DNA of 51,075 nt from Patescibacteria group bacterium. GTDB taxonomy: Bacteria; Patescibacteriota; Minisyncoccia; UBA6257; UBA9933. Where the stretch lies: the NCBI GenBank assembly GCA_038065035.1, contig JBBTRV010000002.1:1-51075 (forward strand), in the 5' to 3' direction. Made by a program: the position numbers and the translations under genes. Of this stretch, positions 7,328 through 42,385 are shown piece after piece; positions within the stretch are counted from its first letter, which is position 1; each line of letters opens with the position of its first letter. The notes beneath the pieces were generated by a model. That model saw nothing but the letters and a program-made list of their open reading frames with translations, had not been told where the DNA came from and ran no database searches.

Positions 7328-7447
7328 AAATTTAAAATGCAAATATCAAAATGTAAAATGACAATATAAAATATTAAAAATTTTAAAATTAAAACATTTT
7401 ATAATTTTAATTTGTCATTTTGATTTTTGATTTTTAAATTTTGATTT
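7328..7447. repeat. Inverted repeat with heptamer-periodic arms
   Basis: Left AAATTTAAAATGCAAATATCAAAATGTAAAATGACAA, right TTGTCATTTTGATTTTTGATTTTTAAATTTTGATTT; core AAAATGACAA/TTGTCATTTT. Confidence 0.8.
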
Positions 7448-8453
7448 ATCTCTTATTCAACAGCGTTCTCTTATAAACATCTAAATGGCTCAAGATTATT
7501 CCCGCTCCCTTTGCCACGCAAAAAAGCGGTTCTTCGGCAACATAAGTATTAACTCCTAGTATTCTCTTAAAAAATTCTGCAAGATTAAGTATTTGAGCGC
7601 TGCCGCCGGATAATATTATTCCTTTTTCCATAACATCAGCCACTAGCTCCGGCGGAGTTTCATTGAAAACCTGCTGGATTGAAGAAGCTATTTCTAATAG
7701 ATAGGGATTAATAGCTTCAGCAATTTCATTAGAGCTGATTAAAATATCTTTCGGCAAGCCGGAAATCAAATCTCTTCCCCTAACGGTATAAGTTATTTTA
7801 TTTTTTAGCGATAACGCCGAGCCGATTTCAATTTTAATATTTTCAGCCATCTGTTCACCGATAGCCATAGAATATTTCTTTTTTATATAATCAATAATCG
7901 CCGTATCGAATTTATCGCCGGCTATTCTCACGCTCGACCAAGAAACAATGCCGCCAAGAGAAATAACCGCCACTTCGCCGGTTCCGCCTCCGATATTTAC
8001 AATCATACTGCCAGAACGGGCATTAATTGGAATGCCAGCGCCCAAAGCGGCCAAAATCGGTTCTCGGACAATATAAGCTTCGCGCGCTCCGGCTTCTTTA
8101 GCGGCATTTATAATCGCCCGGCGTTCAGTCGGCGTAATGCCGGCAGGAGCGGAAATAACAACATCCGGCTTTAAAATATTGAAAGAACCAATGGCAGTAG
8201 CAATAAAATATTTAAGCATCGCCTTGGTAATGTAATAATCAGCAATCACTCCTTCGCGAAGCGGCCGATAAGGTTTGATATCGTCTGGCGTTCGACCAAT
8301 CATTTCTTTAGCTTCCTTACCAACAGCTAAAACAGTATTATCGGGCACGCTTAAAGCCACGATTGTCGGCTCATTGATAATAAAGCCCTTGCCGGGCATG
8401 AAAACAATCGTATTAGCCGTTCCTAAATCTATGCCGATTTTGCGAGTAAACAT
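7446..8453 (-). CDS. mreB: Rod shape-determining protein MreB
   Basis: GIDLGTANT, GVIADY, IGGGTGEVAVISLGG, SGG. Confidence 0.95.
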   Translation of the reverse strand: MFTRKIGIDLGTANTIVFMPGKGFIINEPTIVALSVPDNTVLAVGKEAKEMIGRTPDDIKPYRPLREGVIADYYITKAMLKYFIATAIGSFNILKPDVVISAPAGITPTERRAIINAAKEAGAREAYIVREPILAALGAGIPINARSGSMIVNIGGGTGEVAVISLGGIVSWSSVRIAGDKFDTAIIDYIKKKYSMAIGEQMAENIKIEIGSALSLKNKITYTVRGRDLISGLPKDILISSNEIAEAINPYLLEIASSIQQVFNETPPELVADVMEKGIILSGGSAQILNLAEFFKRILGVNTYVAEEPLFCVAKGAGIILSHLDVYKRTLLNKR

Positions 8454-8461
8454 AATTTATA

Positions 8462-8549
8462 AGCCACTAGCGACTAGGGTTTAGCCATTAGAGTAAAATT
8501 TATTTTAATCTTACACCCTAATGGCTAATAGCTATACCCTAAACCCTAA
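8462..8549. repeat. Inverted repeat with heptamer-periodic arms overlapping the murA stop
   Basis: TAGCGAC TAGGGTT TAGCCAT TAGAGTA ... ATGGCTA ATAGCTA TACCCTA AACCCTA; core TTAGCCATTAG/CTAATGGCTAA. Confidence 0.8.
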
Positions 8550-9834
8550 CAATCTCCGCTCCTAAATTTTTTAATCTCTCGTCTATTTTTTCATATCCTC
8601 TGTCAATTTCTTCAATTCCTTCTATTATTGATTCTCCCTTGGCAATCAAAGCGGCTGTTAAATGCGCCATGCCGGCGCGCAAATCAGAAACTTTTACATT
8701 TCTGCCGAAAAGCGGAGTTGGTCCGGAAATCACTGCGCTATGATACTGGCCTTCGCCGTTGAAACGACAGGGAAATTCTCCCAAACACTTTGAAAATACT
8801 TTAATATTTGCGCCCATAAAATTCAAGTCCTTAATATATTCAAAACGATTTTCATAAACAGTTTCATGAATTATGGAAATACTATTGGCTTGAGTAAGCA
8901 AAATAGCGAAAGGCTGCTGCCAATCGGTCATAAAACCCGGATGAGTGTCGGTCTCAAGTTCTATTGCCGAAAGACCGTCGGAACGCCAAAAAACAATGCC
9001 GTCGTTTTCCACCCTATATTCGCCACCAACCCGCCGGAACTCGTTTAAAAACGTTATTAAATGATTATGAATCGCTTCTTTGATTTTTATTTTATTTCCT
9101 TTGCTGGCCGCCGCAAGACACGCAAAAGAAGCCGCTTCGTTTCTGTCCGGCATTACTTTACGACGCACGCCACCCAGCTTTTTTACGCCGTCAATATAAA
9201 TAGTTCTATCCGCTCCCAAACCGATAATCGCTCCCATATTTTGAAGCATTTCTATCAAATCAATAATCTCCGGCTCAATAGCGGCGTTTTTAATTATTGT
9301 CCGGCCATTTGCTAAAACCGCCGCAAAAATTGCGTTTTCCGTGGCCCCCACGCTCGGATAGCGAAAATTGATTTTCGCGCCCTTTAATCCTTCTGGCGCT
9401 GTGGCTAAAAAATAATTTTCTAAAATTTCAATTTGCGCGCCAAGCGTTTTTAAAGCCGCTAAATGGATATCAACCGGCCGGCTGCCGATTTTATCGCCGC
9501 CTAAAAATGGAACTTGAGCTTTACCGAACCTTGCCAACAACGGCCCTAACGTTAGAATCGGAATTCTATTAACGCGGCCAAGAGATTCAACTTTGAAATT
9601 TTTTATTTCTGGAGTTTTTAAAACAGCCTCGTTGCTGTTGATATTGATTCCCGAACCGATAGAACGAAAAAATTCAGCGGTAATTTCCACGTCGCCGATT
9701 TGCGGAAAATTTTCAAAAATACATTCTTCGTCAGTAAGCAAAGATGCAACCATCATTTTGGTTGCCGCGTTTTTAGAACCTTGAAGCTTGATTTCGCCGT
9801 TTAAAGCCCTGCCGCCATTGACGATAAATTTCAT
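8539..9834 (-). CDS. murA: UDP-N-acetylglucosamine 1-carboxyvinyltransferase
   Basis: GSKNA, IGSRPVDIH, SVGATEN, PGFMTD, ETVYENRF, DLRAG, RGYE; start trimmed to MKFIVNGG at 9834. Confidence 0.95.
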   Translation of the reverse strand: MKFIVNGGRALNGEIKLQGSKNAATKMMVASLLTDEECIFENFPQIGDVEITAEFFRSIGSGININSNEAVLKTPEIKNFKVESLGRVNRIPILTLGPLLARFGKAQVPFLGGDKIGSRPVDIHLAALKTLGAQIEILENYFLATAPEGLKGAKINFRYPSVGATENAIFAAVLANGRTIIKNAAIEPEIIDLIEMLQNMGAIIGLGADRTIYIDGVKKLGGVRRKVMPDRNEAASFACLAAASKGNKIKIKEAIHNHLITFLNEFRRVGGEYRVENDGIVFWRSDGLSAIELETDTHPGFMTDWQQPFAILLTQANSISIIHETVYENRFEYIKDLNFMGANIKVFSKCLGEFPCRFNGEGQYHSAVISGPTPLFGRNVKVSDLRAGMAHLTAALIAKGESIIEGIEEIDRGYEKIDERLKNLGAEIVRV

Positions 9835-9838
9835 ATGA

Positions 9839-9939
9839 TTAGTATCAAGTATCAAGTGTTGGGTGTCAAGAAAATAACAATAATATCCAAATATACTCCT
9901 GATAATTCTTGACACTTAATACTCAACACTTAATACTTA
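9839..9939. repeat. Heptamer inverted repeat containing two divergent promoter-like motifs
   Basis: GTATCAA GTATCAA GTGTTGG GTGTCAA ... TTGACAC TTAATAC TCAACAC TTAATAC; each arm reads TTGACA-N17-RATACT outward. Confidence 0.8.
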
Positions 9940-9944
9940 TTAAA

Positions 9945-11252
9945 ATGACCAAAACAACCAGGCGTTTTTTATTTTACGGTCTTTTTATTCTTTTTATTCC
10001 ATTAAGCATAGCTATTATTCTTTATTCAACCGGTTGGAGGTTGAATGCCGAGAAATGTTCGGATATTCAATTATTAAATTGCTTGGGAATCAGAAAAACT
10101 GGCGCGATTTATATTGAAACAAAGCCAAAAGGCGTAAAAATCGAAATCAACGGAGAAATTTTTGAAGACCAGTCTGGCCTTATCCAAAGCGGCACTTTAA
10201 TATCAAACCTCCCGCCGAAAAACTATGAAGTAAAAATAGAAAAAGACGACTATCTTTTTTATTATAAAAATATTTCTGTCGCGCCTTCAATGGTTTCAGA
10301 ATTAATAGATACGATTCTAATTACCGAAAAAATAGAAAAACAAGAAATTATAAACAATAAATTAAGGGGTGATAAAATTATTGACTTAAGCAATGACACT
10401 AGAAAAATAATAATTAAAAATTCAAAAACTAATAATTATTATCTTTATAATTTTAGCGACCAAAAATCTGTTTTAAACATCAACGCGGCTTTCAATAATA
10501 TAAAAGCCAGCGAAATAGCAAAAATCTCTTTTCATCCGTTTGACTCAAACCGGCTTATTATTGAAGGCGAAAATGGGCTTTATATTTTCGACACAAACCG
10601 CCTTAAGCTGGAAATAATAACCGGCAAAACTATATTTTGGCTGACGAAAAATTCAAGCGTTTATTATTTGAAAGAAACAACAGATGAAAAATCGCCGAAA
10701 ACTAAAAATTACAGCTTGAATTCATTTAATTTGATATTAAGAACCGAAAGTGAAATTTTAAAACCGCAAACAAAAGCTAATAATTTTGCGAAATTCGATA
10801 TTTCAGACTCCGGAGACAGATTCGCGCTTATTGATTCCCTTGATAACCTGTATATTTTTAGCAATAATTCAAAAGAATTAAAACAAATCGCTCATAATGC
10901 CAAAGATTTTTTGTTTTCGCCTGATAATAAAAAAATTGCCTTTTTTGACCAAAATGGCCAGTTGAATATTCATTTCATTGAAGATTGGTATAAAAACTCA
11001 AGAAGAATTGCCGGCGACGCCAGCCGTTTTGGTTATGCGGAAAAATCATCGGAAATCTCCGATATTTATTGGCACAACTCATCCTACCACCTGATAATAG
11101 GGTATGAAAACAATATTGAATTCACTGAAATCGATGACCGTCCGCCGCTTAATAAATATAGAATCATTGAAGCAGACGATTTTTATTACAATCCCGAATT
11201 GTCAAAAATTTACTTTATCCAGAAAGAAAAACTTTATAGTTTTGAGATATAA
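9945..11252 (+). CDS. PEGA-domain membrane-anchored protein with probable beta-propeller
   Basis: N-terminal TM, TGAIYIETKPKG...YEVKIEKDDY PEGA-like segment, FSPDNKKIAF repeats; start trimmed to ATG 9945. Confidence 0.75.
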   Translation: MTKTTRRFLFYGLFILFIPLSIAIILYSTGWRLNAEKCSDIQLLNCLGIRKTGAIYIETKPKGVKIEINGEIFEDQSGLIQSGTLISNLPPKNYEVKIEKDDYLFYYKNISVAPSMVSELIDTILITEKIEKQEIINNKLRGDKIIDLSNDTRKIIIKNSKTNNYYLYNFSDQKSVLNINAAFNNIKASEIAKISFHPFDSNRLIIEGENGLYIFDTNRLKLEIITGKTIFWLTKNSSVYYLKETTDEKSPKTKNYSLNSFNLILRTESEILKPQTKANNFAKFDISDSGDRFALIDSLDNLYIFSNNSKELKQIAHNAKDFLFSPDNKKIAFFDQNGQLNIHFIEDWYKNSRRIAGDASRFGYAEKSSEISDIYWHNSSYHLIIGYENNIEFTEIDDRPPLNKYRIIEADDFYYNPELSKIYFIQKEKLYSFEI

Positions 11253-11255
11253 GTC

Positions 11256-11690
11256 CTACACCACTTCTGCTTTATAGCAATCCTCGCAATAAACTATTTC
11301 TGGCCTGTCTAGTGAATATGTCGTCTCAAATTTATTGGGGCAGAGTTTGACCAGCTCTCCCAATGTTTTGAATCTATTCGGATCTCCTAAGTCAACTCTG
11401 AACTGCGAATAAAAAGATTCCTGATAGCTGTTTTCCCAGGACGATGGCTTGGCGCTTCTGGAAAGGAAATCTGAATTTCCAACTCATTCAATGCTTTCGT
11501 AAATACTTTTGATCCATATTCCCGTCCGTTATCGGAATGGAAAATAGTAAGCCTTTGATTATTGGATAAGGCGAAAAATAAAGCCTGTAGCACCAACGAT
11601 ACAGAATAATTCATCATTACGCTGATGCCTGTTATTTTTCTAGTGAATATATCTATTAAAAGACTAATTTTATAATGAAACAAAATACAC
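11256..11690 (-). pseudogene. Decayed IS3-like (rve integrase core) transposase fused to a Cys-rich C-terminal fragment
   Basis: IDIFTRKITG, IFHSDNGREY, then after a 5-bp TTTCC duplication WENSYQESFYSQFRVDLGDPNRF; lacks N-terminal HTH and normal C-terminus; 5' limit approximate. Confidence 0.8.
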
Positions 11691-11795
11691 AATTTACATT
11701 TACTTCTGCCCAACCTCAGTTTGATAACATTTTCACTCTCTAACAAAAATTGCTTTATATTATTTTTTTCAATATATTTTCAAAATTGTTCAAAC

Positions 11796-12215
11796 TTACG
11801 CTTTTTTGGAAAATAATTTGAAGATAGCTAAAAAAGACAAGCCGCCTAAGAAGTCAAAAAATAAGTCTCCTATTGTGTCCGCCGCTCCCTGCTGGAAAAT
11901 TTGAGTGTAATTTTTTGAAGAAAAGAAAAAATCGTTAAGAAATTCGTAAAATTCCCAGAAAATACCGACTAAAGCAACAAGCGATAAAATGACAATTAGA
12001 AAAGTTAAAAAATTTTGGCTAAGGACTTCTTTAGAAATTGGAAATTGATAATTGAAAATTAAATATACAGCCGCCATTGCCACCCAAAAACCGCCTAAAA
12101 AATGCATCGGTATATCAAGCCATAAATAAGTCCAATACCAATAATTAAAAGTGGCTAAAATATGCAATGAAAGAACGGCTATTAGAAAAATAAGAACTGA
12201 TTTTGAAGAAACCAT
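11796..12215 (-). CDS. Integral membrane protein (VanZ/DUF2238-like)
   Basis: LDIPMHFLGG, WEFYEF, DTIGDL motifs, 4 TM; start trimmed to ATG 12215 (longer ORF overlaps rpsI). Confidence 0.75.
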   Translation of the reverse strand: MVSSKSVLIFLIAVLSLHILATFNYWYWTYLWLDIPMHFLGGFWVAMAAVYLIFNYQFPISKEVLSQNFLTFLIVILSLVALVGIFWEFYEFLNDFFFSSKNYTQIFQQGAADTIGDLFFDFLGGLSFLAIFKLFSKKA

Positions 12216-12231
12216 ACCTGATAGTATAAAA

Positions 12232-12687
12232 TTATCTCTTTCTCCATTGATGTCCTCTGCGAGCCTTATGAAGGCCGTATTTTTTACGCTCAACCGCGCG
12301 AGAGTCGCGGGTAAGATAACCGGCGCGGCGAAGCCGTTTTTTAAAATCAATGTTGAATTTTACCAATGCCCGGGATATGCCGTGCCGAACAGCTTCAGCC
12401 TGACTGGATAATCCGCCCCCTTTTACTTTGATTATAACGCCGAGTTTATCGGTTATTTTCATTCTCTCCAAAGCCGCGACGGCCTGCTTTTGAAGCCTCA
12501 ATAACGGAAAATAATCAGCGCAGTTTTTTTCGTTAATCGTAATACCGTCTTTTTTCGTGTAAAGCCGCACTCGTGCAACCGAAGTTTTTCTTCTTCCAAC
12601 CGCTTCAAAATAACGCTCCTTTTTAATGGTTGCGGTTTTGCTCTCTGATTTTGTTTCCTTTTTAATTTTAGCAATTTTTTCAACCAT
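12232..12687 (-). CDS. rpsI: 30S ribosomal protein S9
   Basis: GRRKTSVARV, GGGLSSQAEAVRHGISRAL, ERKKYG. Confidence 0.97.
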   Translation of the reverse strand: MVEKIAKIKKETKSESKTATIKKERYFEAVGRRKTSVARVRLYTKKDGITINEKNCADYFPLLRLQKQAVAALERMKITDKLGVIIKVKGGGLSSQAEAVRHGISRALVKFNIDFKKRLRRAGYLTRDSRAVERKKYGLHKARRGHQWRKR

Positions 12688-12693
12688 AAAAAA

Positions 12694-13038
12694 TTATTGT
12701 TCTATGAGTAATTTCTTCATTCTTCTTACTCTTAATTTATTTTCCGGCAGCATTTCTCTGACAATTTTTTTTAGCGCTTCTGCCGCCCCCTTTTTTTTAA
12801 TAAGCTCGGCAAGTGTTTGTTTTTTTAGATGGCCAATTTGAGTCGTGTGGCGATAATAAATTCTTTGTTCCGCTTTTCTCTGCGACAAGCTTATTTTATC
12901 AACATTTTTAACAATAACCTTATCTTCACCTTCTAATCTTGGGTTATAATTTGGATTTTTTTTTCCTTGCAAAATAACCGCTATTTCAGAAGCCAAACGT
13001 CCTAATTTTTTATTTGTAGCATCGATAGTATATTGCAT
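12694..13038 (-). CDS. rplM: 50S ribosomal protein L13 (short form)
   Basis: IDATNKKLGRLASEIA, GKKNPNY, MLPENKL. Confidence 0.95.
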   Translation of the reverse strand: MQYTIDATNKKLGRLASEIAVILQGKKNPNYNPRLEGEDKVIVKNVDKISLSQRKAEQRIYYRHTTQIGHLKKQTLAELIKKKGAAEALKKIVREMLPENKLRVRRMKKLLIEQ

Positions 13039-13043
13039 AATAT

Positions 13044-15185: not shown

Positions 15186-15191
15186 AAGATA

Positions 15192-15659: not shown

Positions 15660-15678
15660 ATTCGCTATCGCTCACATT

Positions 15679-15757
15679 CCTACTAATTTACAAATTTTAC
15701 CAATATTACTAATAATTTATATTAGTACAATTAGTAATTTATTAGTACATTAGTAGG
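15679..15757. repeat. ~80-bp palindromic TACTAAT-unit element, copy 1
   Basis: CCTACTAAT...ATTAGTAGG; near-identical copy at 47571..47651. Confidence 0.9.
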
Positions 15758-15758
15758 G

Positions 15759-16169
15759 TTATTTCGATTTCTTTACTCCGTATTTGCTTCTCTCTTGTTT
15801 TCTTCCGTCAACTCCGATAGTGTCCAAAACCCCGCGGACAATATGATATCTTACGCCAGGCAAGTCTTTTACCCTGCCGCCTCTTATCACCACTACCGAA
15901 TGCTCCTGTAAATTATGGCCGACGCCCGGAATATAAGCTGTTGCCTCCATGCCATTGCTTAATCTTACCCTTGCCACTTTCCGTAAAGCGGAATTCGGCT
16001 TTTTTGGAGTAGTGGTAAATACTTTTAAACACACTCCTCTTTTAAAAGGAGAAGCTGAATAAACCGGCTTGTTCCTAATGGTATTAAAATAATACCCCAT
16101 CGCCGGAGATTTTGTTTTTTTGGATTTGCTTTTTCTTCCTTTTTTAATTAATTGATTAATTGTCGGCAT
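15759..16169 (-). CDS. rpsL: 30S ribosomal protein S12
   Basis: [30 protein letters not shown]. Confidence 0.98.
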
Positions 16170-16319
16170 CCCCCACCCTTCAAAGATTATATTTATAAAT
16201 TTTAATAAAAATTTATAAATGATAACTCATTAAAGTTTAATTTATTTTATTTATTTTCATTTTTTTTATTATCCCCTTATTTTCCCCTTCATTTTTCTAT
16301 CTTTGAAGGGTGGGGGGAT
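16168..16319. mobile_element. MITE-like element with 18-bp terminal inverted repeats
   Basis: CCCCCACCCTTCAAAGAT (16170-16187) / ATCTTTGAAGGGTGGGGG (16299-16316) around an AT-rich core, AT on both flanks. Confidence 0.6.
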
Positions 16320-16348
16320 AAAAAATAGAGACCCTTAAGGTCTATGAC

Positions 16349-16378: not shown

Positions 16379-16382
16379 TATA

Positions 16383-28232: not shown

Positions 28233-31090
28233 ATTACAAAATTAATCAGCTTGTCCGCTACGAAAATAACTTTTTTAATTTCCTTGCCAGTGATTAAAAT
28301 TTTAATCCTGTCCGAAAACAATGCCTCTTTTTCCGCTTCTTTTTGGGAGATTCCGCTATTGGCCAAAATTTTATCGCGAGTCTTTCCGTTTATCTGAATT
28401 ACTAATTCAAAAGTTTCTTCTTTAATAAGATTTTTATCATATCGCGGCCATTTTTCCAGATGCACCGATTTTTTTCCGCCAAGCTGATGCCATAATTCCT
28501 CGCTAAGATGAGGCGCGAAAGGCGCCAATAACTTTAAAAATCGTTTTATTGTTTTATCATCGCATTGTTGATGATTTTCTTCTATCTTGTTGAATAAAAT
28601 CATCAACGCGCTAATCGCCGTGTTAAAATGAAAATTTTCAATATCTTCAGAAATTTTTTTGATAGTTTGGTGTAAAAGTCTTTCTAATTCATCGTTTTTA
28701 ACGCTTGATACTTGATACTTGATGCTTGATATTAATTTATTTATTCTTTCCAGAAATCTTTTAACTCCGAGTATCCCGGTCGGATTCCACGGTCCGCCTT
28801 GGTCATAAGGCCCCATAAAGCAAAGATACATCCTAACGGCATCACTGCCGAATTTTTTAACTAAATTGTCAGGGTCAACAACATTGCCGCGCGATTTAGA
28901 CATTTTTTGGCCGTCAGAACCAAGAATTATACCTTGATGACGCAAAGCCGCAAACGGCTCGCCAAAATTCAAATAACCGAAATCTTGAAGCGCTTTGGTG
29001 AAAAATCGTACATATAAAAGATGCATTGCGGCATGCTCGGCTCCTCCGATATACATATCAACCGGCAGCCAATTTTTTATTTTTTTCCCGTCAGCAAACT
29101 TCTTTGAATTATTCGGATCAACATATCGCAAATAATACCAAGAAGAACAGACAAACGTGTCCATTGTGTCTGTTTCTCTTTTTGCTGGATTGCCGCATTT
29201 AGGACATTTTACATTTACAAATTTTTTTGAATGAGCTAATGGCGATTTCCCTTCTTCTGTTGGCAAATAATTTTTGATATTCGGCAATATTACCGGCAGT
29301 TTTTTCTCCGGTACCGGAACAATTCCGCATCCGCCAGCTGGCGGATCGCAATAAATAATCGGAATCGGCGCACCCCAATAACGCTGCCTTGAAACAAGCC
29401 AGTCACGAAGTTTATAATTAATTTTCTTTTCACCCAATTTATTATCTTTAAGCCACTTCATCATTTTTTCTCTCGCTTCCTCGGATTTCATTCCTGTAAA
29501 TTGACCAGAATTAACAAGGACTCCATCTTCCGCATATGTTTCTTCGCCATTTAATCTTTTAACCCAATCGTCCATTTCCGCATGGCACAACGTATCATAA
29601 TTAACATTTTCTTTATCGACCCAGATTAACTCATGCGAAATTTCCCATTCTTTATCAACTGGAGATTTTTCTTCATTTATAAGGTCGAATAAAACGCCCG
29701 TTGTATAGGCAACCCTATTTTCATCTTTATGCTTGGCAAAATATTCAGCGCGAACTTCCCCGCCCAAAATTTTAACTAATTTAATATTTTTATAGCCGGT
29801 TTCTTCTTCTGTCTCTCTTCTGGCCGCTTCCACTACGCTTTCATTTTCTTCAATTCCTCCCATAGGAAAAGTAACCCAATGAAATTTTTTTGATTTTAAA
29901 CATAGAAATTTATTATTTTTTGGATTCCTTACAAGTGCGTGAACATTTTTTCTTTCCACTGTTTTTTTGCCATAAGCAGGCGGATTTTTTTTATCAATTC
30001 TATTTGGTATTACAACCTCTTTAATGGGCAAATTATATTTTTTCGCAAATTCCCAATCCCTTTCATCGTGCGCCGGAACAGCCATCACCGCGCCAGTGCC
30101 ATAATGCCCCAAGACATAATCCGCAATAAAAACCGGCACTGTTTCATTATTAAAAGGATTTATCGCTTTAATCCCTTTTAATTCAACTCCTGTTTTCTTT
30201 TTATCCGCCTCCAATCTTTGAAGTTCAGTTTTTTTTCTTGCCTGCTCAATATAATTTTCAACTTCTTTAATATTCAATATCTCAGATTTTAAATTTGAAA
30301 TTATGTCATGTTCAGGAGCGATAACCAAATAAGTGCATCCGAAAACAGTATCCGCACGCGTTGTAAAAACTTCAATTGAAAATCGAAGATTTAAAACTGG
30401 AAATTTAATTATCGCCCCCTCCGACCGTCCTATCCAATTTTTCTGCATTATTTTTGTTTTTTCCGGCCAATCCAGCTTATCTAAGTCATTCAATAATCTT
30501 TCTGCGTAATCAGTAATTTTAAAAAGCCATTGTTCAATATCGCGCTGAACAACCTGCGCATCGCATCTTTCACATTTGCCATTTATCACCTGCTCATTAG
30601 CCAAAACAGTATGGCATTTTGGGCACCAATTTGCCGAAACCTTTTTCTTATACGCCAAACCATTCTTAAACATCTGCAAAAACATCCACTGGGTCCATTT
30701 ATAATATTCCGGCTCAGCGGTAATGATTTTGCGCGACCAGTCATACATATTTCCCATACTTTCAAGCTGAATCGTCATTGTCTTGATATTTTTATAAGTC
30801 CAATCCTTCGGATGAATTCCTCTTTTAATAGCCGCATTTTCAGCTGGCAAGCCAAAAGCGTCGAAACCAATTGGCGATAAGACATTAAAACCAGCCATTC
30901 TTTTGAAACGGCTGAAAACATCGGCCGGAGCAAAATTATACCAATGGCCGATATGAAGGTTTCCAGAAGGATACGGAAACATCACTAAATGATAAAAATT
31001 CTTTCTGCTGAGAACTTTATCTTTCGTCTTATAAATCTTTTTTTGTTTCCATATTTTCTGCCACCTTTTTTCAATCCTATTAAAATCCAT
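28229..31090 (-). CDS. leuS: Leucine--tRNA ligase with inserted NUDIX domain
   Basis: HIGH, KMSKS, GTGAVMAVPAHD, SRQRYWG; Nudix box GGIEENESVVEAARRETEEETG. Confidence 0.97.
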   Translation of the reverse strand: MDFNRIEKRWQKIWKQKKIYKTKDKVLSRKNFYHLVMFPYPSGNLHIGHWYNFAPADVFSRFKRMAGFNVLSPIGFDAFGLPAENAAIKRGIHPKDWTYKNIKTMTIQLESMGNMYDWSRKIITAEPEYYKWTQWMFLQMFKNGLAYKKKVSANWCPKCHTVLANEQVINGKCERCDAQVVQRDIEQWLFKITDYAERLLNDLDKLDWPEKTKIMQKNWIGRSEGAIIKFPVLNLRFSIEVFTTRADTVFGCTYLVIAPEHDIISNLKSEILNIKEVENYIEQARKKTELQRLEADKKKTGVELKGIKAINPFNNETVPVFIADYVLGHYGTGAVMAVPAHDERDWEFAKKYNLPIKEVVIPNRIDKKNPPAYGKKTVERKNVHALVRNPKNNKFLCLKSKKFHWVTFPMGGIEENESVVEAARRETEEETGYKNIKLVKILGGEVRAEYFAKHKDENRVAYTTGVLFDLINEEKSPVDKEWEISHELIWVDKENVNYDTLCHAEMDDWVKRLNGEETYAEDGVLVNSGQFTGMKSEEAREKMMKWLKDNKLGEKKINYKLRDWLVSRQRYWGAPIPIIYCDPPAGGCGIVPVPEKKLPVILPNIKNYLPTEEGKSPLAHSKKFVNVKCPKCGNPAKRETDTMDTFVCSSWYYLRYVDPNNSKKFADGKKIKNWLPVDMYIGGAEHAAMHLLYVRFFTKALQDFGYLNFGEPFAALRHQGIILGSDGQKMSKSRGNVVDPDNLVKKFGSDAVRMYLCFMGPYDQGGPWNPTGILGVKRFLERINKLISSIKYQVSSVKNDELERLLHQTIKKISEDIENFHFNTAISALMILFNKIEENHQQCDDKTIKRFLKLLAPFAPHLSEELWHQLGGKKSVHLEKWPRYDKNLIKEETFELVIQINGKTRDKILANSGISQKEAEKEALFSDRIKILITGKEIKKVIFVADKLINFVI

Positions 31091-33821: not shown

Positions 33822-33842
33822 TAATTCAACTGATTTTTTTAT

Positions 33843-34901: not shown

Positions 34902-34948
34902 TAAAAAATTTATTGAATCCGCCAGTTAGCGGAATAAATTAAAAATTA

Positions 34949-36160: not shown

Positions 36161-36240
36161 ATTAGTTAATTGGTTGATTAGTTAATTGGTTGATTAGTTT
36201 TTTACTAATTGACTAACTAACCAATTCGCTAATTAACTAT
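36161..36240. repeat. Inverted repeat with 8-nt-periodic arms
   Basis: ATTAGTTA ATTGGTTG ATTAGTTA ATTGGTTG ATTAGTT ... ACTAATTG ACTAACTA ACCAATTC GCTAATTA ACTA; fills the whole pilB-pilC gap. Confidence 0.85.
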
Positions 36241-37946
36241 TCTCGTATCACGCGAAGCACTTCATCAATTGTCGTCATTCCCAATTCCGCTTTCCGCAAA
36301 CCATCCTCAAACATAGTAACCATCCCCCCCTTCTTTGCTAAAACTAAAATATTATCCAAAGAAAATCCCGGGCTTATAATTTCTTTTCTTAAGTTTTCGT
36401 CTATACTTAAAATTTCAAAAATGCCAATCCGACCGGAAAATCCCGAATTATTGCAAGCCGAACAACCCTTTCCCCTATATAAAATTTTCGGCTCTTTATA
36501 ATTCAAAACCAATTTTAAATCTTCAATCTGCTTCTTTAATAATTCTAACAAATTTTCGGACGGCGTGAAAGACTCGATGCAATTAAGACAAATTTTTCTT
36601 ACTAATCTTTGAGCAAGCACTGCATTTAAAACCGCTGCCACCAAAAAAGGCGCTATTTTCATATCAATCATTCGAGGTACGGCAGTTGCAGCGTCATTTG
36701 TATGCAAGCTTGAAAGAAGTAAATGGCCGGTTAATGCGGCATGGACGCTAATTTCCGCCGTTTCTTCATCCCTAACTTCACCGACCATAATAATATTCGG
36801 GTCTTGTCTTAAAATCGAGCGAAGTCCGGAGGCAAAAGTAATGCCCGCTTGAATGTTTATTTGAGTTTGATTGATATATTTAATGTCGTATTCTATCGGG
36901 TCCTCAATGGTAACAATATTAACCTCTGGATGATTTAAAATATTCAAAATAGAATATAAAGTTGTTGTCTTTCCAGAGCCAGTCGGTCCAGTAATCAAAA
37001 CCATGCCGTAGCTTTTCTTAATATTTTCAATAATCAATTTTTCAACATCATCAAGCATTCCCAATTCTTTCAATGAAAGAGGTTTTTGCGTTGCCGGCAA
37101 AAGACGCATTTCCACTTTTTCACCGTAAAAAGTAGGTATTGTCGAAACTCTGATATCTATCAAATCAATCCCGACTTTATGGCGGAAACGGCCATCCTGC
37201 GGTTTTTGATGTTCATCTATTTTCAATCCGGAAAGCAATTTCATTCTAGCGATTATCGGCGCATGTACTTCCTTAGAAATCGAAAAGACCTCGTGGAGAA
37301 TGCCGTCTATTCTGAATCTCACGAAAATGCCGTCGTCAAAAATTTCTATATGAATATCCGAAGATCTCAACGACACCGCGTATGAAAGAAGATTATCTAT
37401 AATCGCCACTATCGGCATTGCCCGCGCCGCTTCTTCAACGGTGTTTATTTTCTGGCGCAAAGAAGCCTGAATATTTTCATCTATGATTTTTTTGAAATCT
37501 TCGGTGAATTGCTTGCCATAAACGGAAAATCCTTTATCAAGGTCGTCATTTGTAGCTAGAAAAGCCTTAATATTAGTTCTAAGATTTTTTTTTAAAAATT
37601 CTAAAATATTTAAGTCTGTTGGGTCTTCCATCGCCGCCAAAAGAGTACCGTCCGCTTCTTCATCAAAGATAATAACCCTTTTCTGCCTTGCCAATCCTTC
37701 TGATAATTTTCTTAATGCTTTTTCATTAATTTGACGATTGATTAAATTCGCTTTAACAACATTGAAATACTTTGACAAAACTGAATAAAGGTATTCCATC
37801 GATACAATATTTCTAGAAATCAAAACATCGCCAACATGTTGATTTTTCCTTAATGCTTCTTTTTCTACATCATCAAATGCGTCGCTTTCTATAAGCCCCT
37901 CACCTACTAAGATCTCTTTTAATTTTTTCGAAGGAATTTGAAGCAT
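36237..37946 (-). CDS. pilB: GspE/PilB-family assembly ATPase (copy 2)
   Basis: SDIHIE, PQDGR, GPTGSGKTTT, RQDPNIIMVGEVRD, CLNC/CSAC. Confidence 0.93.
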   Translation of the reverse strand: MLQIPSKKLKEILVGEGLIESDAFDDVEKEALRKNQHVGDVLISRNIVSMEYLYSVLSKYFNVVKANLINRQINEKALRKLSEGLARQKRVIIFDEEADGTLLAAMEDPTDLNILEFLKKNLRTNIKAFLATNDDLDKGFSVYGKQFTEDFKKIIDENIQASLRQKINTVEEAARAMPIVAIIDNLLSYAVSLRSSDIHIEIFDDGIFVRFRIDGILHEVFSISKEVHAPIIARMKLLSGLKIDEHQKPQDGRFRHKVGIDLIDIRVSTIPTFYGEKVEMRLLPATQKPLSLKELGMLDDVEKLIIENIKKSYGMVLITGPTGSGKTTTLYSILNILNHPEVNIVTIEDPIEYDIKYINQTQINIQAGITFASGLRSILRQDPNIIMVGEVRDEETAEISVHAALTGHLLLSSLHTNDAATAVPRMIDMKIAPFLVAAVLNAVLAQRLVRKICLNCIESFTPSENLLELLKKQIEDLKLVLNYKEPKILYRGKGCSACNNSGFSGRIGIFEILSIDENLRKEIISPGFSLDNILVLAKKGGMVTMFEDGLRKAELGMTTIDEVLRVIRE

Positions 37947-37948
37947 AT

Positions 37949-39652
37949 TTATTCAACCGCTACTCTTAAAACTTCTTCAACCGTAATTAATCCTTTTTCT
38001 ATTTTATCCAATCCATCTTCTATCATCAATCGCATACCATCTCTTTGCGCTTGTTTTTTTATGGCATTAACAGGCGACTTGGCAATAATCAAATTCCGAA
38101 TTTCATCGGAAACATACATAATCTCAAAAATACCTACTTGGCCGCGATAACCGGAAAAACCGCAAGCTCCACAACCTTGTCCCTGATATATTACCGACGG
38201 TAACGTCAATTTTACACTAGTATTCTTAGTATATTCTTTAAAAATATTAACTATTTCCTTCGTTGGTTTCGTTGAATGAACGCAAGAATTGCATATTCTT
38301 CTCGCCAATCTCTGAGCAATAACAACATTTACCGTTGAAGCTATCAAAAACGTAGGCACTTTTAAATCAATGAGTCTTGGAACGGCAGTTGCCGCATCAT
38401 TAGTGTGAAGAGTGGAAAGTAAACGATGGCCAGTCAACGCGGCGTTTACGGCAATATCAGCAGTTTCTGAATCGCGAATTTCACCTATCATAATAATATC
38501 CGGATTTTGCCTTACCAACGACTTCAAGCCAGCGGCAAACGTCAATCCTGATTTGATATTAACCTGTGTTTGATTGACTCCAACGATATCATATTCTATT
38601 GGGTCTTCTATAGTGGTGATATTCACTTTTGGAGTATTCAAGATACCCAATACTGCATAAAGAGTAGTTGTTTTTCCGGCGCCGGTCGGACCGGTAACTA
38701 AAATCATTCCCCGCGGTTTTTGAATCGCAATTTCCAAATTAATTAAATTATCAGACGAAAATCCAAGTTCATAAAGAGTAAGCGGCCGTAAAGAACCTTT
38801 TAAAAGCCTCATTTCAGCCTTTTCTCCATGGAACGTCGGGATAATTGAAACCCGAATATCTATAAACTGATCTTCTATGGGAAAACGGAATCGGCCGTCT
38901 TGAGGAGAGTTATGGACATCTATCTGCAAATTAGTTATTACTTTAATCCGCGCGACTAGAATTGAAGCTATTATTGGCGGAAGACTCAAAATCTCATTAA
39001 GAATTCCGTCAATCCTATATCTGACGATTAATTTGTTTTCAAATGGCTCAAAATGAATATCTGACGCTCCCATTGTTACCGCATGTTCGATAATCGTATT
39101 AACAATGGTAATAATCGGCAAAGCTCCAACCATTTTTGAAATATTAACGGCTCCGACAATTCCAATTGATTCATTTATATTATTTTCAATAATCTTTCCG
39201 AATTCTTCGTTAATTTTTTTCTTATACTGCCTTAAGCCGTATTTCAAATCGCTTGGCGTTACCAAATAAACATCCAGCCAAACATTTAGCTTAAGCATTA
39301 AATAATTAATAGTCTGAAAATCCTCCGGATCAATCATTGCCAGCTTCCCCTCTTTCGCCTCTTTATTGAATTCAAAAAGAATAACCTGGCGGCTTTTAGC
39401 GTAAGACTCCGGAATTAATTCCAGAATTTCAGCCGAAATTTTAATTCCCGAAAGATTGACAACCGGCACTTCAAAAAATTTAGCAATGTTCTCAGTTAAA
39501 TATTTTTCATCAATAAAGCCCTTGCCTATCAAAATATCGAGAGGCATCCTATTGCTTCGCTCCGCTTCTTCTTGAGCCGCTAAAAAATCTTTTTCTTTCA
39601 CCAATCCTGAGTCAGCGATTATTTTTTTTATATCTTCTGTTAATAAATGCAT
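37949..39652 (-). CDS. pilB: GspE/PilB-family assembly ATPase (copy 1)
   Basis: SDIHFE, GPTGAGKTTT, RQNPDIIMIGEIRD, CNSC/CGAC; start set to ATG 39652. Confidence 0.93.
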   Translation of the reverse strand: MHLLTEDIKKIIADSGLVKEKDFLAAQEEAERSNRMPLDILIGKGFIDEKYLTENIAKFFEVPVVNLSGIKISAEILELIPESYAKSRQVILFEFNKEAKEGKLAMIDPEDFQTINYLMLKLNVWLDVYLVTPSDLKYGLRQYKKKINEEFGKIIENNINESIGIVGAVNISKMVGALPIITIVNTIIEHAVTMGASDIHFEPFENKLIVRYRIDGILNEILSLPPIIASILVARIKVITNLQIDVHNSPQDGRFRFPIEDQFIDIRVSIIPTFHGEKAEMRLLKGSLRPLTLYELGFSSDNLINLEIAIQKPRGMILVTGPTGAGKTTTLYAVLGILNTPKVNITTIEDPIEYDIVGVNQTQVNIKSGLTFAAGLKSLVRQNPDIIMIGEIRDSETADIAVNAALTGHRLLSTLHTNDAATAVPRLIDLKVPTFLIASTVNVVIAQRLARRICNSCVHSTKPTKEIVNIFKEYTKNTSVKLTLPSVIYQGQGCGACGFSGYRGQVGIFEIMYVSDEIRNLIIAKSPVNAIKKQAQRDGMRLMIEDGLDKIEKGLITVEEVLRVAVE

Positions 39653-39673
39653 ATTCGCTTCGCTCAAAATAAT

Positions 39674-39709
39674 AAATAATAAATAAAAAATATTTTTTAT
39701 TTATTATTT
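39674..39709. repeat. Perfect 36-bp AT-only palindrome
   Basis: AAATAATAAATAAAAAAT/ATTTTTTATTTATTATTT, with AAATAAT heptamer units. Confidence 0.8.
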
Positions 39710-42290
39710 ACACACAAAGTCCCCAACTGCAAGTCGGACATTTGGTGCAACCTTCCTGTTTTACCAAAATCGTATTGCAATTAGGGCAATTTTTCAACAA
39801 ATTTTTCGGCTCTAAATTGCCATTATCAACCGGAGATAAGCCAAGACTTCCCGAAGAAGCCGCAATATTCGCTCCGGCCTCGGAATAGACAGCTAATCCT
39901 TTGGCTTTCTCGTCTTTAATAAGAGAAATTCTCATATTTTCTTTAGGTTTTTTCTTTGTACTGCCGCCAACCAATACCTGAGATTGTAAGGACCTGTCCC
40001 GATAAATTGTCGCGCCCTTACATCCAAGCTCGTAAGCCATCAAATAAGCTTTTTTAATGTCATCAACAGTCGCTTCAGCTGGGAAATTATTTGTTTTAGA
40101 AATGGAAGAATCCGTCCATTTCTGGAAAGAAGCTAAAACTTTAATATGGTCGGCTGGAGAAATATCCATCGCAGTAACAAATATTTTTTTTATTTTTTCC
40201 GGAATATAAGGGATGCTTCTCACGCTGCCGTTTAAAACCGCAGTGTCTTTTATAAGATCCTCATCCATTAATCCTTCTTTTCTCATTTTTTCTTCAAAAA
40301 CAGGGTCAATATAATAAAAATTCCCGATTGCCACGCTCTTTTCAAAAACCAGGCTGAAAACCGGCTCAATACCCGAAGAACAACCGGCAATCATTGAAAT
40401 AGAGCCCGTTGGCGCGATTACAGTATTGAAAGCATTGCGAATGCCGAATTTCTTTATTTTCTTCGCAATTTCATTCCAATCAAAATGCCATGATTTTTTG
40501 TCTTTAAATCCGGCAAACGGCAATTTACCGTCTTTATAAAACGACTTGTCAAAATAAGGCATTCTGCCGCGCTCTTTTGATAATTCAACTGAAGCCGATT
40601 TAGAATGATAATTAATAAATTCCATCAGCTTCTCCATAAATTCCAGCCCTTGTTTTGAAGCATATGGAATTTCAAGTTCATAAAGCAAATCTCCTGTGCC
40701 CATTACTCCCAAACCGAGTTTTCTCGTATTTAAAGTCATCTCTTCAATTTCCGGCAAAGGATATTTATTTATATCAACAACATTGTCTAGAAATTTCGTG
40801 GCGATAATAACATCATTCTCCAGCTGCTTCCAGTCAAAATGCGGTTTTTTATCGCCATTTTTCCTAAGATAAGCCCAGATATTGATTGAGCCGAGATTAC
40901 AGCTCTCATTTGGGTATAATAAAACTTCACCGCATGGATTAGTGCATTCTATGGGTCCTAAAGTTTTTGCAAAAGGATTATATTCATTGATGCGGTCGTG
41001 AAAAAGAACTCCCGGCTCGGCTGATTCCCAAGCATGATGGGCGATCATTTCAAAAAGTTGTTTGGCGTCGATTTCTTTTACCGCTTTGCCGGTCCTTGAA
41101 TTTATTAATACATAGGGCTTATTTTCTTCTATTGCTTTCCAAAATTCCGGCTTTAACATAATAGAAATATTAAAATTACGCAGAGCTTTATTGCCTTCTT
41201 TGGCGGTAATAAATTGTTCAATATCGGGGTGGTTGGAATTCAAAATTCCCATATTCGCTCCCCGTCTTATGCCGCCTTGTTTTATAACGTCAGTCATATT
41301 ATCAAACATGCTCATAAAACTTATCGGACCAGAAGCAAGGCCGCCTGTAGTTTTCACAAAGTCACCGGCAAACCTAAGTTTTGAAAAATTATAGCCGACT
41401 CCTCCGCCTGATTTAAAAATAATCGCCGCGGCTTTAAGAGTATCCATAATGGAATCAATAGAATCCTCAATGCCCAGAACAAAACAAGCGCTTCCCATTC
41501 CCAAATAATTTCCGAAATTAGCAATAGCCGGCGTATTGGGCAAAAACCGACGATTAACCATTAAATTATAATAAGCGGATATTTCGTCTTCGTATTTATC
41601 GAAATATCCTTTTTTTAAAAGATTTAGAAATCCGTTCCAGGAAACCTTGATTTTTCTTTGCTTGGCAAAACGGTCATATATCCTTTTCATTCCTTCAAGA
41701 TGAAATTGATTAAGCTTATACCTGCCTACGGAAAATTTTTGAGCGAATTTCACCAAATCAAAATCTTCAATCGCGTGTTCAGGCGCCTTGCTATTTCTAA
41801 CGTAAATTTTTTTGTCGTAGAAAAGAGAAGGGATGACCGCGTGAACCGCCACCCTTTCAAAAAGTTCTTTTACCGACTCAATCACTTCGCCATTTTCATT
41901 TTTTTTTAAATACCTTGAAGCTAAAACTCTTAAAGCATTAGTATCAAATTTTTTATCAATCTCGTCTATTTCCTCTTTATTTAAAATTTGTTTTTTCTCA
42001 TTTCTTATTTCAGCCCGATGCTGTCGGTATAAAATATAAGCTTTCGCTATCCTAGCCTTTCCCGAATCTATTAAAACCGATTCCACTATATCTTGAACAT
42101 CTTCAACATTCGGCAATGATCTTTTTTTAAATTTTTTATTAAGGCGCTCGACAATTTCTTTAGTTAAAGAATTTGCCATTTGCCAATTTTGTTCGCCAAC
42201 GGCGACTGATGCTTTATAAATAGCGTTTACAATTTTATCAGCCCTAAATGGCACTATCTGATTATTACGTTTTTTAATAGATTTAAACAT
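39708..42290 (-). CDS. nrdJ: Adenosylcobalamin-dependent (class II) ribonucleotide reductase with ATP cone
   Basis: N-terminal ATP cone, SACFV, RRGANMG, TNPCGE, CNLGSIN, APTGSIS, C-terminal CPNC...CTKCPTC. Confidence 0.92.
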   Translation of the reverse strand: MFKSIKKRNNQIVPFRADKIVNAIYKASVAVGEQNWQMANSLTKEIVERLNKKFKKRSLPNVEDVQDIVESVLIDSGKARIAKAYILYRQHRAEIRNEKKQILNKEEIDEIDKKFDTNALRVLASRYLKKNENGEVIESVKELFERVAVHAVIPSLFYDKKIYVRNSKAPEHAIEDFDLVKFAQKFSVGRYKLNQFHLEGMKRIYDRFAKQRKIKVSWNGFLNLLKKGYFDKYEDEISAYYNLMVNRRFLPNTPAIANFGNYLGMGSACFVLGIEDSIDSIMDTLKAAAIIFKSGGGVGYNFSKLRFAGDFVKTTGGLASGPISFMSMFDNMTDVIKQGGIRRGANMGILNSNHPDIEQFITAKEGNKALRNFNISIMLKPEFWKAIEENKPYVLINSRTGKAVKEIDAKQLFEMIAHHAWESAEPGVLFHDRINEYNPFAKTLGPIECTNPCGEVLLYPNESCNLGSINIWAYLRKNGDKKPHFDWKQLENDVIIATKFLDNVVDINKYPLPEIEEMTLNTRKLGLGVMGTGDLLYELEIPYASKQGLEFMEKLMEFINYHSKSASVELSKERGRMPYFDKSFYKDGKLPFAGFKDKKSWHFDWNEIAKKIKKFGIRNAFNTVIAPTGSISMIAGCSSGIEPVFSLVFEKSVAIGNFYYIDPVFEEKMRKEGLMDEDLIKDTAVLNGSVRSIPYIPEKIKKIFVTAMDISPADHIKVLASFQKWTDSSISKTNNFPAEATVDDIKKAYLMAYELGCKGATIYRDRSLQSQVLVGGSTKKKPKENMRISLIKDEKAKGLAVYSEAGANIAASSGSLGLSPVDNGNLEPKNLLKNCPNCNTILVKQEGCTKCPTCSWGLCV

Positions 42291-42304
42291 AAAAAAATAA
42301 TACT

Positions 42305-42385
42305 AAACCACGAATGTATGCGAATGCCGCAAATTTTATTTAAGTCGATTTCTATTTTCGTGGAATTCGCATGTATTTGTAGTTT
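42305..42385. repeat. Inverted repeat with 9-10-nt CGAAT units
   Basis: AAACCACGAATGTATGCGAATGCCGCAAA ... TTTCGTGGAATTCGCATGTATTTGTAGTTT. Confidence 0.75.

Follow-up and report, generated by a model that had tools for sequence, protein, structure and literature searches.

The window considered here is a stretch of 51,075 nucleotides from the 590-kb genome (92% complete; G000 below) of a tiny groundwater bacterium. Gaps between its protein-coding genes, among them holB, mreB, murA, rpsL, rpsG, nrdJ and ftsZ, hold eight inverted repeats that are predicted to fold as hairpins (H1 to H8). They are listed below with their repeat units, arms, any period reported by TRF, and the z-score for folding of the sense-strand RNA relative to 200 dinucleotide shuffles of each hairpin.

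H1, 7328 to 7447: family A, TCAAAAT-type heptamers, filling the spacer from the mreB stop to the holB start; arms 7329 to 7387 and 7389 to 7447 (59 nt, 75% complementary); period 7 at 7328 to 7379 and 7418 to 7447; z −4.45.
H2, 8462 to 8549: 7-mers ending in TAG, recognised by eye, in the murA/mreB gap; arms 8468 to 8494 and 8515 to 8541; no TRF period; z −4.40.
H3, 9838 to 9940: AGTATCA-type heptamers between the divergent murA (ATG at 9834) and an ORF starting at 9945; arms 9838 to 9872 and 9906 to 9940; period 7 at 9841 to 9857; z −7.22.
H4, 36161 to 36240: 8-mers TTAGTTAA/TTGGTTGA in the gap between the pilB-type and pilC-type genes; arms 36163 to 36198 and 36204 to 36239; period 16 (2 × 8) at 36161 to 36199 with 100% matches; z −7.00.
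H5, 39667 to 39710: AAATAAT heptamers, the ribonucleotide reductase stop codon being its first unit of sequence; arms 39673 to 39691 and 39692 to 39710 (19-bp stem, 100% complementary); period 7 at 39667 to 39710; z −6.65.
H6, 42305 to 42392: family B, weakly periodic ACGAAT/GCGAAT units in the ftsZ/nrdJ spacer; imperfect stem 42310 to 42390; no TRF period, the word detector finding 2 + 3 units of ACGAAT; z −3.30.
H7, 15678 to 15758: family C, TACTAAT units with ends CCTAC...GTAGG, in the rpsL/rpsG spacer; z −7.37.
H8, 47571 to 47650: family C, second copy in the window; z −3.80.

An earlier note on this DNA had reported H1 to H6, and all six are present, with z-scores from −3.3 to −7.22; its inventory overlooked the two family C copies, which extend the range for the window to −7.4. 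No shuffle folded equally well for any of H1 to H5 (0 of 200 each), and one of 200 did so for H6. The stems are A+T-rich, 40–120 nt long, with 19–47 base pairs and loops of 0–33 nt. Arms made of tandem 7–10-mers, as the note described them, are evident in four of its six hairpins, where TRF gives a period of 7 or 16, but are weak at 8462–8549 and 42305–42385. None of the eight hairpins contains an ORF. Rfam 15, applied to the window at gathering score, returns eight tRNAs and no family for the hairpins; nor did it give a family for a conserved element present in five copies.

About 27 such hairpins were counted by eye across the genome. All lie between protein-coding genes, none is in 23S rRNA, and 23 of the 27 listed separate co-directional genes within operons. 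In 19 of these 23 co-directional cases the hairpin starts −7 to +8 nt from the upstream stop codon, and in 21 it ends −9 to +20 nt from the called start. The note was right that the repeats touch stop or start codons or run into them. H4, for example, begins at the TAG that ends the pilB-type secretion ATPase gene upstream and stops 2 nt short of the pilC-type ATG, and the first unit of H2 includes the final codons of murA together with its stop codon, which thus lies within an arm. Arrays also run in frame within pth. For annotation, such elements explain why some ORF calls are too long and some gene ends are altered.

Stable stems within intergenic DNA could be intrinsic terminators or attenuators, an explanation that we regard as very improbable. 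As the note had stated, the sequences lack a G+C-rich stem and a T-run, and they are located between tightly linked operon genes. Ordinary terminators with a G+C-rich stem and T-run do exist elsewhere in the genome, mainly in convergent gaps. The segment 7200–10100 has five terminator-like sites, none of them at a hairpin.

An objective scan covered the 265 gaps of 30–250 nt in the whole genome, and found an excess of the kind whose absence the note had named among its grounds for refutation. The word detector was positive in 15 of the 265, compared with 0–2 (mean 0.8) in 10 shuffle sets, while hairpins of at least 20 bp with both arms periodic numbered 9, compared with 0–2 in eight shuffle sets and none in coding windows. 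A test for exact 5-mer words, whose strictness excludes degenerate units, gave 6 of 265 against 0.13 in shuffles. By mean folding energy alone, gaps and coding windows could not be told apart (−20.4 versus −20.7 kcal/mol). Counting hairpins of at least 30 bp gave 18 in the real gaps and 3–11 per A+T-rich shuffle set, a yield that would suit chance palindromes of A+T-rich, low-complexity spacers. Given the z-scores, the two periodic-arm detectors and the occurrence of the same hairpin families in several genomes, the probability of that explanation is negligible.

The six hairpins of the earlier note have a common architecture without a common sequence, as it stated; for each of them, however, similar sequences exist at other places in the genome. 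Multi-copy families in G000 comprise A (five copies, found also on contigs C7, C9, C11 and C4), B, C, D and E; the four copies of family C have their CCTAC...GTAGG ends in common and lie in unrelated flanks. In copy number, size (50–500 bp being the MITE range), terminal inverted repeats and defined ends, the families resemble MITEs. They also qualify as paired opposed tandem arrays, their 7–9-mers being repeated on opposite strands, near each other, in intergenic DNA. That the elements exist, depart from random sequence and recur in several copies is shown by these data.

Elements of this kind also occur with a gene inside. The sole TIGR02436 gene of G000 (C9:12819–13187; 89.5 bits to TIGR02436 and 90.9 bits to PF05635), which encodes a four-helix bundle, is flanked by inverted arms of TTATGAC-type heptamers, and this loaded copy has a unit family in common with three gene-less hairpins. 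The note had mentioned such arms around TIGR02436 and GxxExxY (TIGR04256) genes of other genomes, and for TIGR02436 the link is supported. Inverted periodic arms (p ≤ 0.005) flank 21 of 28 TIGR02436 loci, 27 from relatives plus the G000 copy, compared with 3 of 135 control genes drawn from the other small genes of G000; TIGR04256 has no match in G000, and no gene other than the four-helix bundle was found with such arms on either side. In loaded loci the median distance is 8 nt from arm end to ATG and 11 nt from stop codon to second arm, and in all 25 of the relatives' loci that have an identified neighbour the gene points the same way as the genes beside it.

Gene and hairpins also tend to occur together. 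Among nine related genomes, picked for long contigs, hairpins were detected in 25 of 196 gaps where the gene is present and in 2 of 198 where it is not. One genome with no detected gene, G013, gave 2 hits in 49 gaps, and family B stands at ftsZ/nrdJ in G011, G013 and G016, where no gene was detected. G000 itself has one loaded copy for its ~27 hairpins, most of which belong to other unit families. The note further suggested that the hairpins are remnants, or sites that are filled in some genomes and empty in others. A purpose-built HMM returned only noise from the G000 gaps (best non-self E value 2.8), and the idea of remnants gains no support, there being no detectable trace of the gene in the gene-less hairpins. 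A filled counterpart was found at one junction (C4 94666–94779), which is hairpin-only in G000 and gene-loaded in G007, but not at the mreB junctions (0 of 109 loci), nrdJ (0 of 18) or rpsL (0 of 29); the only four-helix-bundle gene in the mreB loci, in L065, is 4.5 kb away from mreB. A junction may be tight, hairpin-only or gene-loaded depending on the genome, and the elements have unit families in common with loaded cassettes.

The holB/mreB and mreB/murA junctions were compared across 29 relatives and 80 metagenome loci. Both are bimodal, measuring either next to nothing or 40–230 nt, and in relatives they are tight (0–25 nt) or occupied by other hairpins. Where G000 has family A at mreB/holB and H2 at murA/mreB, its nearest tree tip, L061 (MreB 94% identical), has family A at murA/mreB and only 11 nt at mreB/holB; the two family A elements agree throughout 37 nt of arm. 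On an MreB tree the minimum number of state changes is 14 for 74 tips, with label shuffles averaging 16.9, and 18 for 88 tips, with shuffles averaging 25.6. In 16 of 30 loci the rpsL/rpsG gap does not exceed 13 nt; it is 99 nt in G000, 1 nt in G017 and 1–8 nt across G017, G004 and G002, and family C occupies this same junction in G006 and G023. Family B hairpins are found at ftsZ/nrdJ in G002, G006, G011 and G013, and in partial form in G016. Comparing tight with occupied junctions, in a set that holds no strain-level pairs, yielded no clear target-site duplication. Even among close relatives, elements appear, disappear and change place.

These comparisons bear on the view that the hairpins are intercistronic RNA structures made by the host, serving translational coupling or the stability or processing of mRNA. 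On this view they grew in place through heptamer slippage and quasi-palindrome correction, with four-helix-bundle genes inserting into pre-existing hairpins. The native end of murA (R-V-stop) does serve as the opening arm unit of H2, and in L063 the different unit found there matches that locus's own murA end (R-I-stop). An element with the same ends as H2 is present in L066 and differs from the G000 copy by a paired change that affects each arm. The exact stop-to-start fit and the retention of hairpins in three genomes without a detected four-helix-bundle gene are likewise consistent with host-made structures. We nevertheless judge this view unlikely. Near-identical elements stand at different junctions in close relatives, G003 has bursts of near-identical copies (at least eight in 100 kb), and the multi-copy families have sharp ends in unrelated flanks. 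The many relatives with tight junctions imply that the structure is dispensable. Moreover, stem mismatches show no G-U bias: 32 are G-U-compatible in the sense and 30 in the antisense orientation, beside 108 of transversion type, and this ratio of about 1:2 is that expected from random change, so the stems bear no RNA signature.

H3, which lies between divergent genes, suggests instead that the arrays might be read as DNA, as operator, iteron-like or promoter-bearing sites bound by a regulator. Both of its arms carry an outward TTGACA-17-nt-GATACT/AATACT match (10/12), placed for leaderless transcripts, and paired opposite-strand 7–9-mer sites in Geobacter metallireducens were proposed to be sites for a global regulator (PMC2700814). 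Promoter-like matches in 7200–10100 are within the shuffle level (14 versus 9.1, s.d. 3.1). Since most listed hairpins (23 of 27) separate co-directional operon genes, and the many unrelated units would have to be served by the few regulators of a 590-kb genome, DNA-level binding arrays are an improbable explanation.

The reading that we prefer, with a probability of roughly 60%, is that the hairpins are gene-less, MITE-like forms of a hairpin cassette of the intervening-sequence (IVS) type, belonging to several palindromic families at operon stop-to-start junctions. These small elements, with arms composed of 7–9-nt words in arrays, would have inserted exactly at the junctions. Counting against this reading are the lack of filled alleles at the mreB, nrdJ and rpsL junctions, the lack of a gene remnant in the gene-less hairpins, the single loaded copy in G000, the family B hairpins of genomes with no detected gene, the co-occurrence being drawn from nine related genomes, the stem mismatches with their random pattern, and the failure to identify a target-site duplication. 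The loaded form would carry, between arms of the same kind, a promoter-less gene of ~120 amino acids for a four-helix bundle of the 23S rRNA intervening-sequence family (PF05635/TIGR02436, Avd fold), oriented like the host operon. Hairpins would be co-transcribed with the operon, and their arms would probably pair in its transcripts as double-stranded RNA stems of 19–47 bp, so that the stop codon on one side and the start codon on the other would meet where the stem begins. The geometry of a tight, translationally coupled junction may be kept in this manner, which would explain why insertions are tolerated. By analogy with the rRNA intervening sequence, the stems may also be substrates for RNase III, whose gene is present in G000.

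A broader proposal is offered tentatively. The Avd-fold protein might itself act in trans to spread or maintain the word-armed hairpins, which would make them a transposase-free class of mobile element; loaded cassettes, MITE-like copies, 23S rRNA IVSs and the intergenic heptamer arrays of many bacteria could in that case be one phenomenon. A search of G000 for Y1_Tnp, RVT_1 and tyrosine recombinases found no transposase-bearing parent with the same ends. Neither Y1_Tnp (in an assembly that is 92% complete) nor RVT_1 has any match, and the one tyrosine recombinase is housekeeping-like in appearance.

Intergenic tandem heptamers of the STRR type, the family named after the '23S rRNA intervening-sequence protein', and the survival of selfish DNA in extremely streamlined genomes have each gone unexplained for decades. 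If hairpins and four-helix-bundle cassette are one element, all three puzzles acquire a testable handle. The exact stop-to-start span suggests a simple rule for harmless insertion inside essential operons, here those for ribosomal proteins, cell division and the cell wall in a 0.6-Mb genome.

Several known systems resemble parts of this picture. Integron cassettes are also small, promoter-less, co-oriented genes with hairpin-forming recombination sites (attC) and 'empty' and 'filled' states; here, by contrast, there is no integron integrase or attI array, arms stand on both sides of the gene, and cassettes are dispersed singly at operon junctions. The Correia/NEMIS elements of Neisseria and ERIC are small, multi-copy, palindromic intergenic MITEs that are co-transcribed and in some cases cut by RNase III. 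The present elements differ in having internally periodic arms, the four-helix bundle as their only associated gene, and neither a transposase-bearing parent nor a target duplication that could be found. REP/BIME sequences, too, are imperfect intergenic palindromes within operons. An identity with the REP/BIME-RAYT system was rejected: REPs are short, G+C-rich and Y1-dependent, whereas the stems here are A+T-rich and G000 has no Y1_Tnp match.

Similar intergenic arrays are known as the STRR heptamers of cyanobacteria. Intergenic tandem 7–9-mers in two opposite-strand arrays able to form stem-loops have also been described from Xanthomonas (convergent GGGAATC pairs, 70 in X. campestris and 75 in X. 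citri; PMC4692102) and Geobacter (24 and 21 paired sites of 3–5 tandem 7–9-mers; PMC2700814). Those arrays were interpreted there as G-quadruplex or regulator sites, and have one dominant unit per genome, in contrast to the many A+T-rich unit families found here. No four-helix-bundle gene is mentioned in the searched text of either paper ('S23' being absent from that of PMC4692102 and 'four helix' from that of PMC2700814).

In protein fold and family, the cassette gene is akin to the Avd accessory protein of diversity-generating retroelements, PF05635 being regarded as homologous to bAvd (PMC10053308). The G000 protein scores 32.8 bits against the bAvd-like model, under the cut-off of 40, and the lack of RVT_1 led us to reject such a retroelement in this genome. 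The IVS of 23S rRNA differs in its host site, helix 45 of the rRNA rather than the spacer of a protein-coding operon, and the elements here have word-array arms and are mostly ORF-less (8 of 8 in the window). In Coxiella burnetii, PMC4990558 describes a 28-bp stem, cut by RNase III in its middle, with an ORF in the loop; it cites ORF-bearing IVSs in Leptospira as well, and regards the IVS as a selfish element that is co-transcribed with its host gene. Like the loaded cassettes described here, the rRNA IVS has terminal inverted repeats that form a stem, and its loop holds an ORF for a four-helix bundle of the PF05635 family.

The genome that holds the window totals 589.6 kb in 12 contigs (C1 to C12, the window being C2), with 36% G+C and 92% completeness, and the DNA runs containing the window are groundwater metagenomes. 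Nearly all genes in the window are carried by the minus strand. Pfam upholds the gene names given in the earlier note for DNA polymerase III delta' (holB), MreB, MurA, T2SSF (pilC-type), two T2SSE ATPases (pilB-type), ribonucleotide reductase and FtsZ; the label 'PEGA' for the ORF at 9945-11252 has no Pfam confirmation. All six intergenic inverted repeats claimed in that note were found where it had placed them, and two further hairpins of the same build, which both belong to one family, can be added.

Hairpins in the window, with tandem periods called by TRF
7328-7447, between mreB and holB; period 7 at 7328-7379 and 7418-7447
8462-8549, between murA and mreB; no TRF call
9838-9940, between murA and the ORF starting at 9945; period 7 at 9841-9857
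36161-36240, between pilB and pilC; period 16 (2 x 8) at 36161-36199
39667-39710, between nrdJ and pilB; period 7 throughout
42305-42392, between ftsZ and nrdJ; no TRF call at 42305-42385
15678-15758, between rpsL and rpsG; added here
47571-47650; added here

Folded as sense-strand RNA, the window hairpins have z values of -3.3 to -7.4, and at most 1 of 200 dinucleotide shuffles folds equally well. The description of their arms as tandem units is borne out by TRF for four of the six, and is less secure for the murA/mreB and ftsZ/nrdJ hairpins, whose periodicity is weak. Genome-wide folding of 299 gaps of 25-500 nt yielded 27 hairpins, chosen by eye, with arms built of tandem 7-9-nt units (word-armed hairpins). 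Objective counts were made on 265 gaps of 30-250 nt. Hairpins of at least 20 bp with both arms periodic occur in 9 gaps, compared with 0-2 in eight shuffle sets and none in coding windows; exact 5-mer chains occur in 6 (mean 0.13 in 100 shuffles), and degenerate 6-mer chains in 15 (0-2 in 10 shuffles). All three counts speak against chance. The mean folding energy of the gaps is no better than that of coding windows. Ordinary terminators with a G+C stem and T run are also present, mostly in convergent gaps, and form a separate class. The observation of word-armed hairpins is thus confirmed and extended.

The six listed hairpins look mutually unrelated, yet sequences related to each of them occur at other places in the genome. 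No Rfam family matches them.

Repeat families by unit type
Family A, TCAAAAT-type units; 5 copies in this genome
Family B, TACGAAT-type units
Family C, TACTAAT-type units; 4 copies in this genome, with conserved ends CCTAC...GTAGG and unrelated flanks
Family D, TTATGAC-type units
Family E, TTAGTTAA-type units

Families also recur in other genera; for example, relative G003 has family B together with a TAAAGTT family, and copies of family A occur in G006 as well as G007.

Several other repeats were observed. The peptidyl-tRNA hydrolase gene (49987-50574, plus strand) holds two in-frame heptamer arrays, AAAATCA x4.7 (50107-50139) and AAGTATC x4.3 (50402-50431), whose units are those of the mreB/holB and 9838-9940 hairpins; these arrays are one-armed and lie within a conserved gene, the 182-residue product of which spans 166 Pfam profile positions. 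TRF also reports heptamers within called ORFs: CTTGATA x4 (28704-28731), AACTAAT x4.3 (46430-46459) and TTTTTGG x3.6 (6720-6744). Just upstream of rpsL, at 16170-16316, is a perfect G+C-rich inverted repeat of 18 nt, and the A+T-rich loop of 111 nt within it contains many short tandem repeats; a similar arm end is present at C11 36855-36933. Five copies of a structured element, conserved in the core and variable in the outer stem (C3 30793-30910, C4 113422-113513, C7 22838-22942, C9 42479-42599 and C12 27695-27791), have no Rfam match; the element occurs also in relative G015 (locus L038).

Word-armed hairpins are closely fitted to the genes on either side. Among 23 co-directional cases in the genome, the hairpin starts -7 to +8 nt from the upstream stop codon in 19 and ends -9 to +20 nt from the called start in 21, so that in these cases the hairpin constitutes the entire spacer. 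The first unit of the murA/mreB hairpin includes the final two murA codons and the stop, and at pilB/pilC and nrdJ/pilB the stop codon forms the first bases of the hairpin. The hairpin at 9838-9940 is a special case, since it lies between divergent genes. Its arms (9841-9869, minus strand; 9909-9937, plus strand) contain outward-facing matches to TTGACA-17-GATACT/AATACT, 10 of 12 positions each, which rank highest among the promoter-like matches in the region. The second hexamer ends 7-8 nt before both start codons, and these putative promoters would give leaderless transcripts. Separately, two copies of GCGAA followed by TAT directly precede a start codon at 15660-15678 and 39652-39666 in the window and at C7 45200 and C7 66271, immediately after a word-armed hairpin at three of the four sites; a looser pattern of this type occurs 15 times in the genome and 1-4 times in shuffles.

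The same junctions vary widely among relatives. In the mreB region, compared across 29 relatives, each from another genus, and 80 metagenome contigs, the murA/mreB (63 measured) and mreB/holB (69 measured) spacers are bimodal, with one class at about 25 nt or below and the other at about 40-230 nt. Many of the long spacers are word-armed hairpins whose unit differs between genomes. On an MreB tree (FastTree, 108 rows), tight versus spacer states require at least 14 changes over 74 tips at one junction (label shuffles: mean 16.9, range 11-19) and at least 18 over 88 tips at the other (mean 25.6, minimum 20), which indicates fast turnover. The nearest relative, locus L061 (MreB 94%), carries a family-A element at murA/mreB and only 11 nt at mreB/holB, whereas the genome studied has family A at mreB/holB and the 8462-8549 hairpin at murA/mreB. 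The family-A arms of the two share an identical 37-nt stretch, and their placement at different junctions reflects relocation and not inheritance in place. The 8462-8549 hairpin is also found in the more distant L066 (84%), where its ends are identical and both arms have changed in a way that preserves pairing.

Elsewhere, the rpsL/rpsG spacer is 13 nt or less in 16 of 30 loci (1 nt in G017 versus 99 nt here), and family C occupies it here and in G006 and G023 while being absent from the closer G017, G004 and G002. At ftsZ/nrdJ, family-B hairpins are present here and in G002, G006, G011 and G013, partially in G016; in G024, G004 and G021 the two genes are 3-10 nt apart.

The genome has one TIGR02436 match, at C9:12819-13187 (89.5 bits; PF05635, 90.9 bits; nearest solved structure 2GSC), and no match to TIGR04256. 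This four-helix-bundle gene is flanked by inverted arms of family-D heptamers. TIGR02436 was found in 28 of 41 genomes, this one included, with up to 8 copies per ~0.5 Mb, some being fragments or containing stops. The flanking of such genes by periodic inverted arms, which the earlier note mentions for other genomes, is evident at 21 of 28 loci (27 from relatives plus the one in this genome; empirical p <=0.005). When the same arm test was applied to 136 small genes of the genome, four passed, one being the four-helix-bundle gene itself and the other three ordinary genes adjoining hairpins. The arms hug the gene, with median distances of 8 nt to the ATG and 11 nt from the stop codon, and often include the start and stop codons. 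Its orientation matches that of its neighbours at all 25 relatives' loci with an identifiable neighbour (four loci had none).

Several of the relatives' loaded junctions, meaning those with the gene between arms, were placed in the genome through homologues of the neighbouring genes. The gene-less hairpin at C4 94666-94779 is loaded in G007. Tight junctions correspond to loaded ones at C1 3309/3311 (G009, G002, G028 and G022), C7 38470/38486 (G018), C9 24887/24893 (G012) and C12 13864 (G020). The earlier proposal of empty cassette sites or RNA-processing stems is supported in part: the link to the four-helix-bundle gene holds, but no such gene lies in the compared mreB, nrdJ or rpsL junctions of relatives.

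In 60-100-kb samples, our detector marked 13/46, 2/52, 4/34, 5/26 and 1/38 gaps in five relatives with the gene and 0/56, 0/34, 2/49 and 0/59 in four without, although the nine genomes are mutually related and were selected for long contigs, which weighs against this co-occurrence. Also counter to the link, family-B hairpins are kept in three genomes with no detected four-helix-bundle gene. No traces of the gene were found in the gene-less hairpins of the genome studied. At the ribosomal protein L15 gene (C11 32750-33260, locus L238), a hairpin lies on the upstream side, and related units form a one-armed array between the stop codon and the start of the next gene, so host genes, too, can come between arrays.

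The hairpins are best read as a gene-less mobile form of a four-helix-bundle cassette of the type found as 23S rRNA intervening sequences (IVS), seated in stop-to-start junctions. Only one tyrosine recombinase was found in the genome, and neither a reverse transcriptase nor a Y1 transposase. The arms may serve as double-stranded RNA substrates of RNase III, as suggested by the co-orientation of the cassette gene with its operon, the stop/start geometry and analogy to the Coxiella IVS, in which RNase III cuts the middle of a 28-bp stem whose loop contains an ORF (PMC4990558). RNase III is encoded in the genome, at C4:103695-104366. A family-D hairpin (C4 103608-103672), of the same unit family as the cassette arms, sits 23 nt upstream of its gene. 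Stem mismatches carry no wobble signature (G-U-compatible, 32 sense versus 30 antisense; 108 transversion-type).

Our literature search found nothing for TIGR02436 or for an intervening sequence protein with a four-helix bundle, and a survey of diversity-generating retroelements (DGRs) equates PF05635 with Avd (PMC10053308). Paired, opposed arrays of tandem 7-9-mers are already known: the passages searched describe 70 and 75 convergent pairs in Xanthomonas (PMC4692102) and 24 and 21 paired arrays in Geobacter metallireducens, interpreted as regulator sites (PMC2700814), and do not mention a four-helix-bundle gene. The TAACTGA repeats of Beggiatoaceae, in contrast, are direct and unpaired (PMC4679880).
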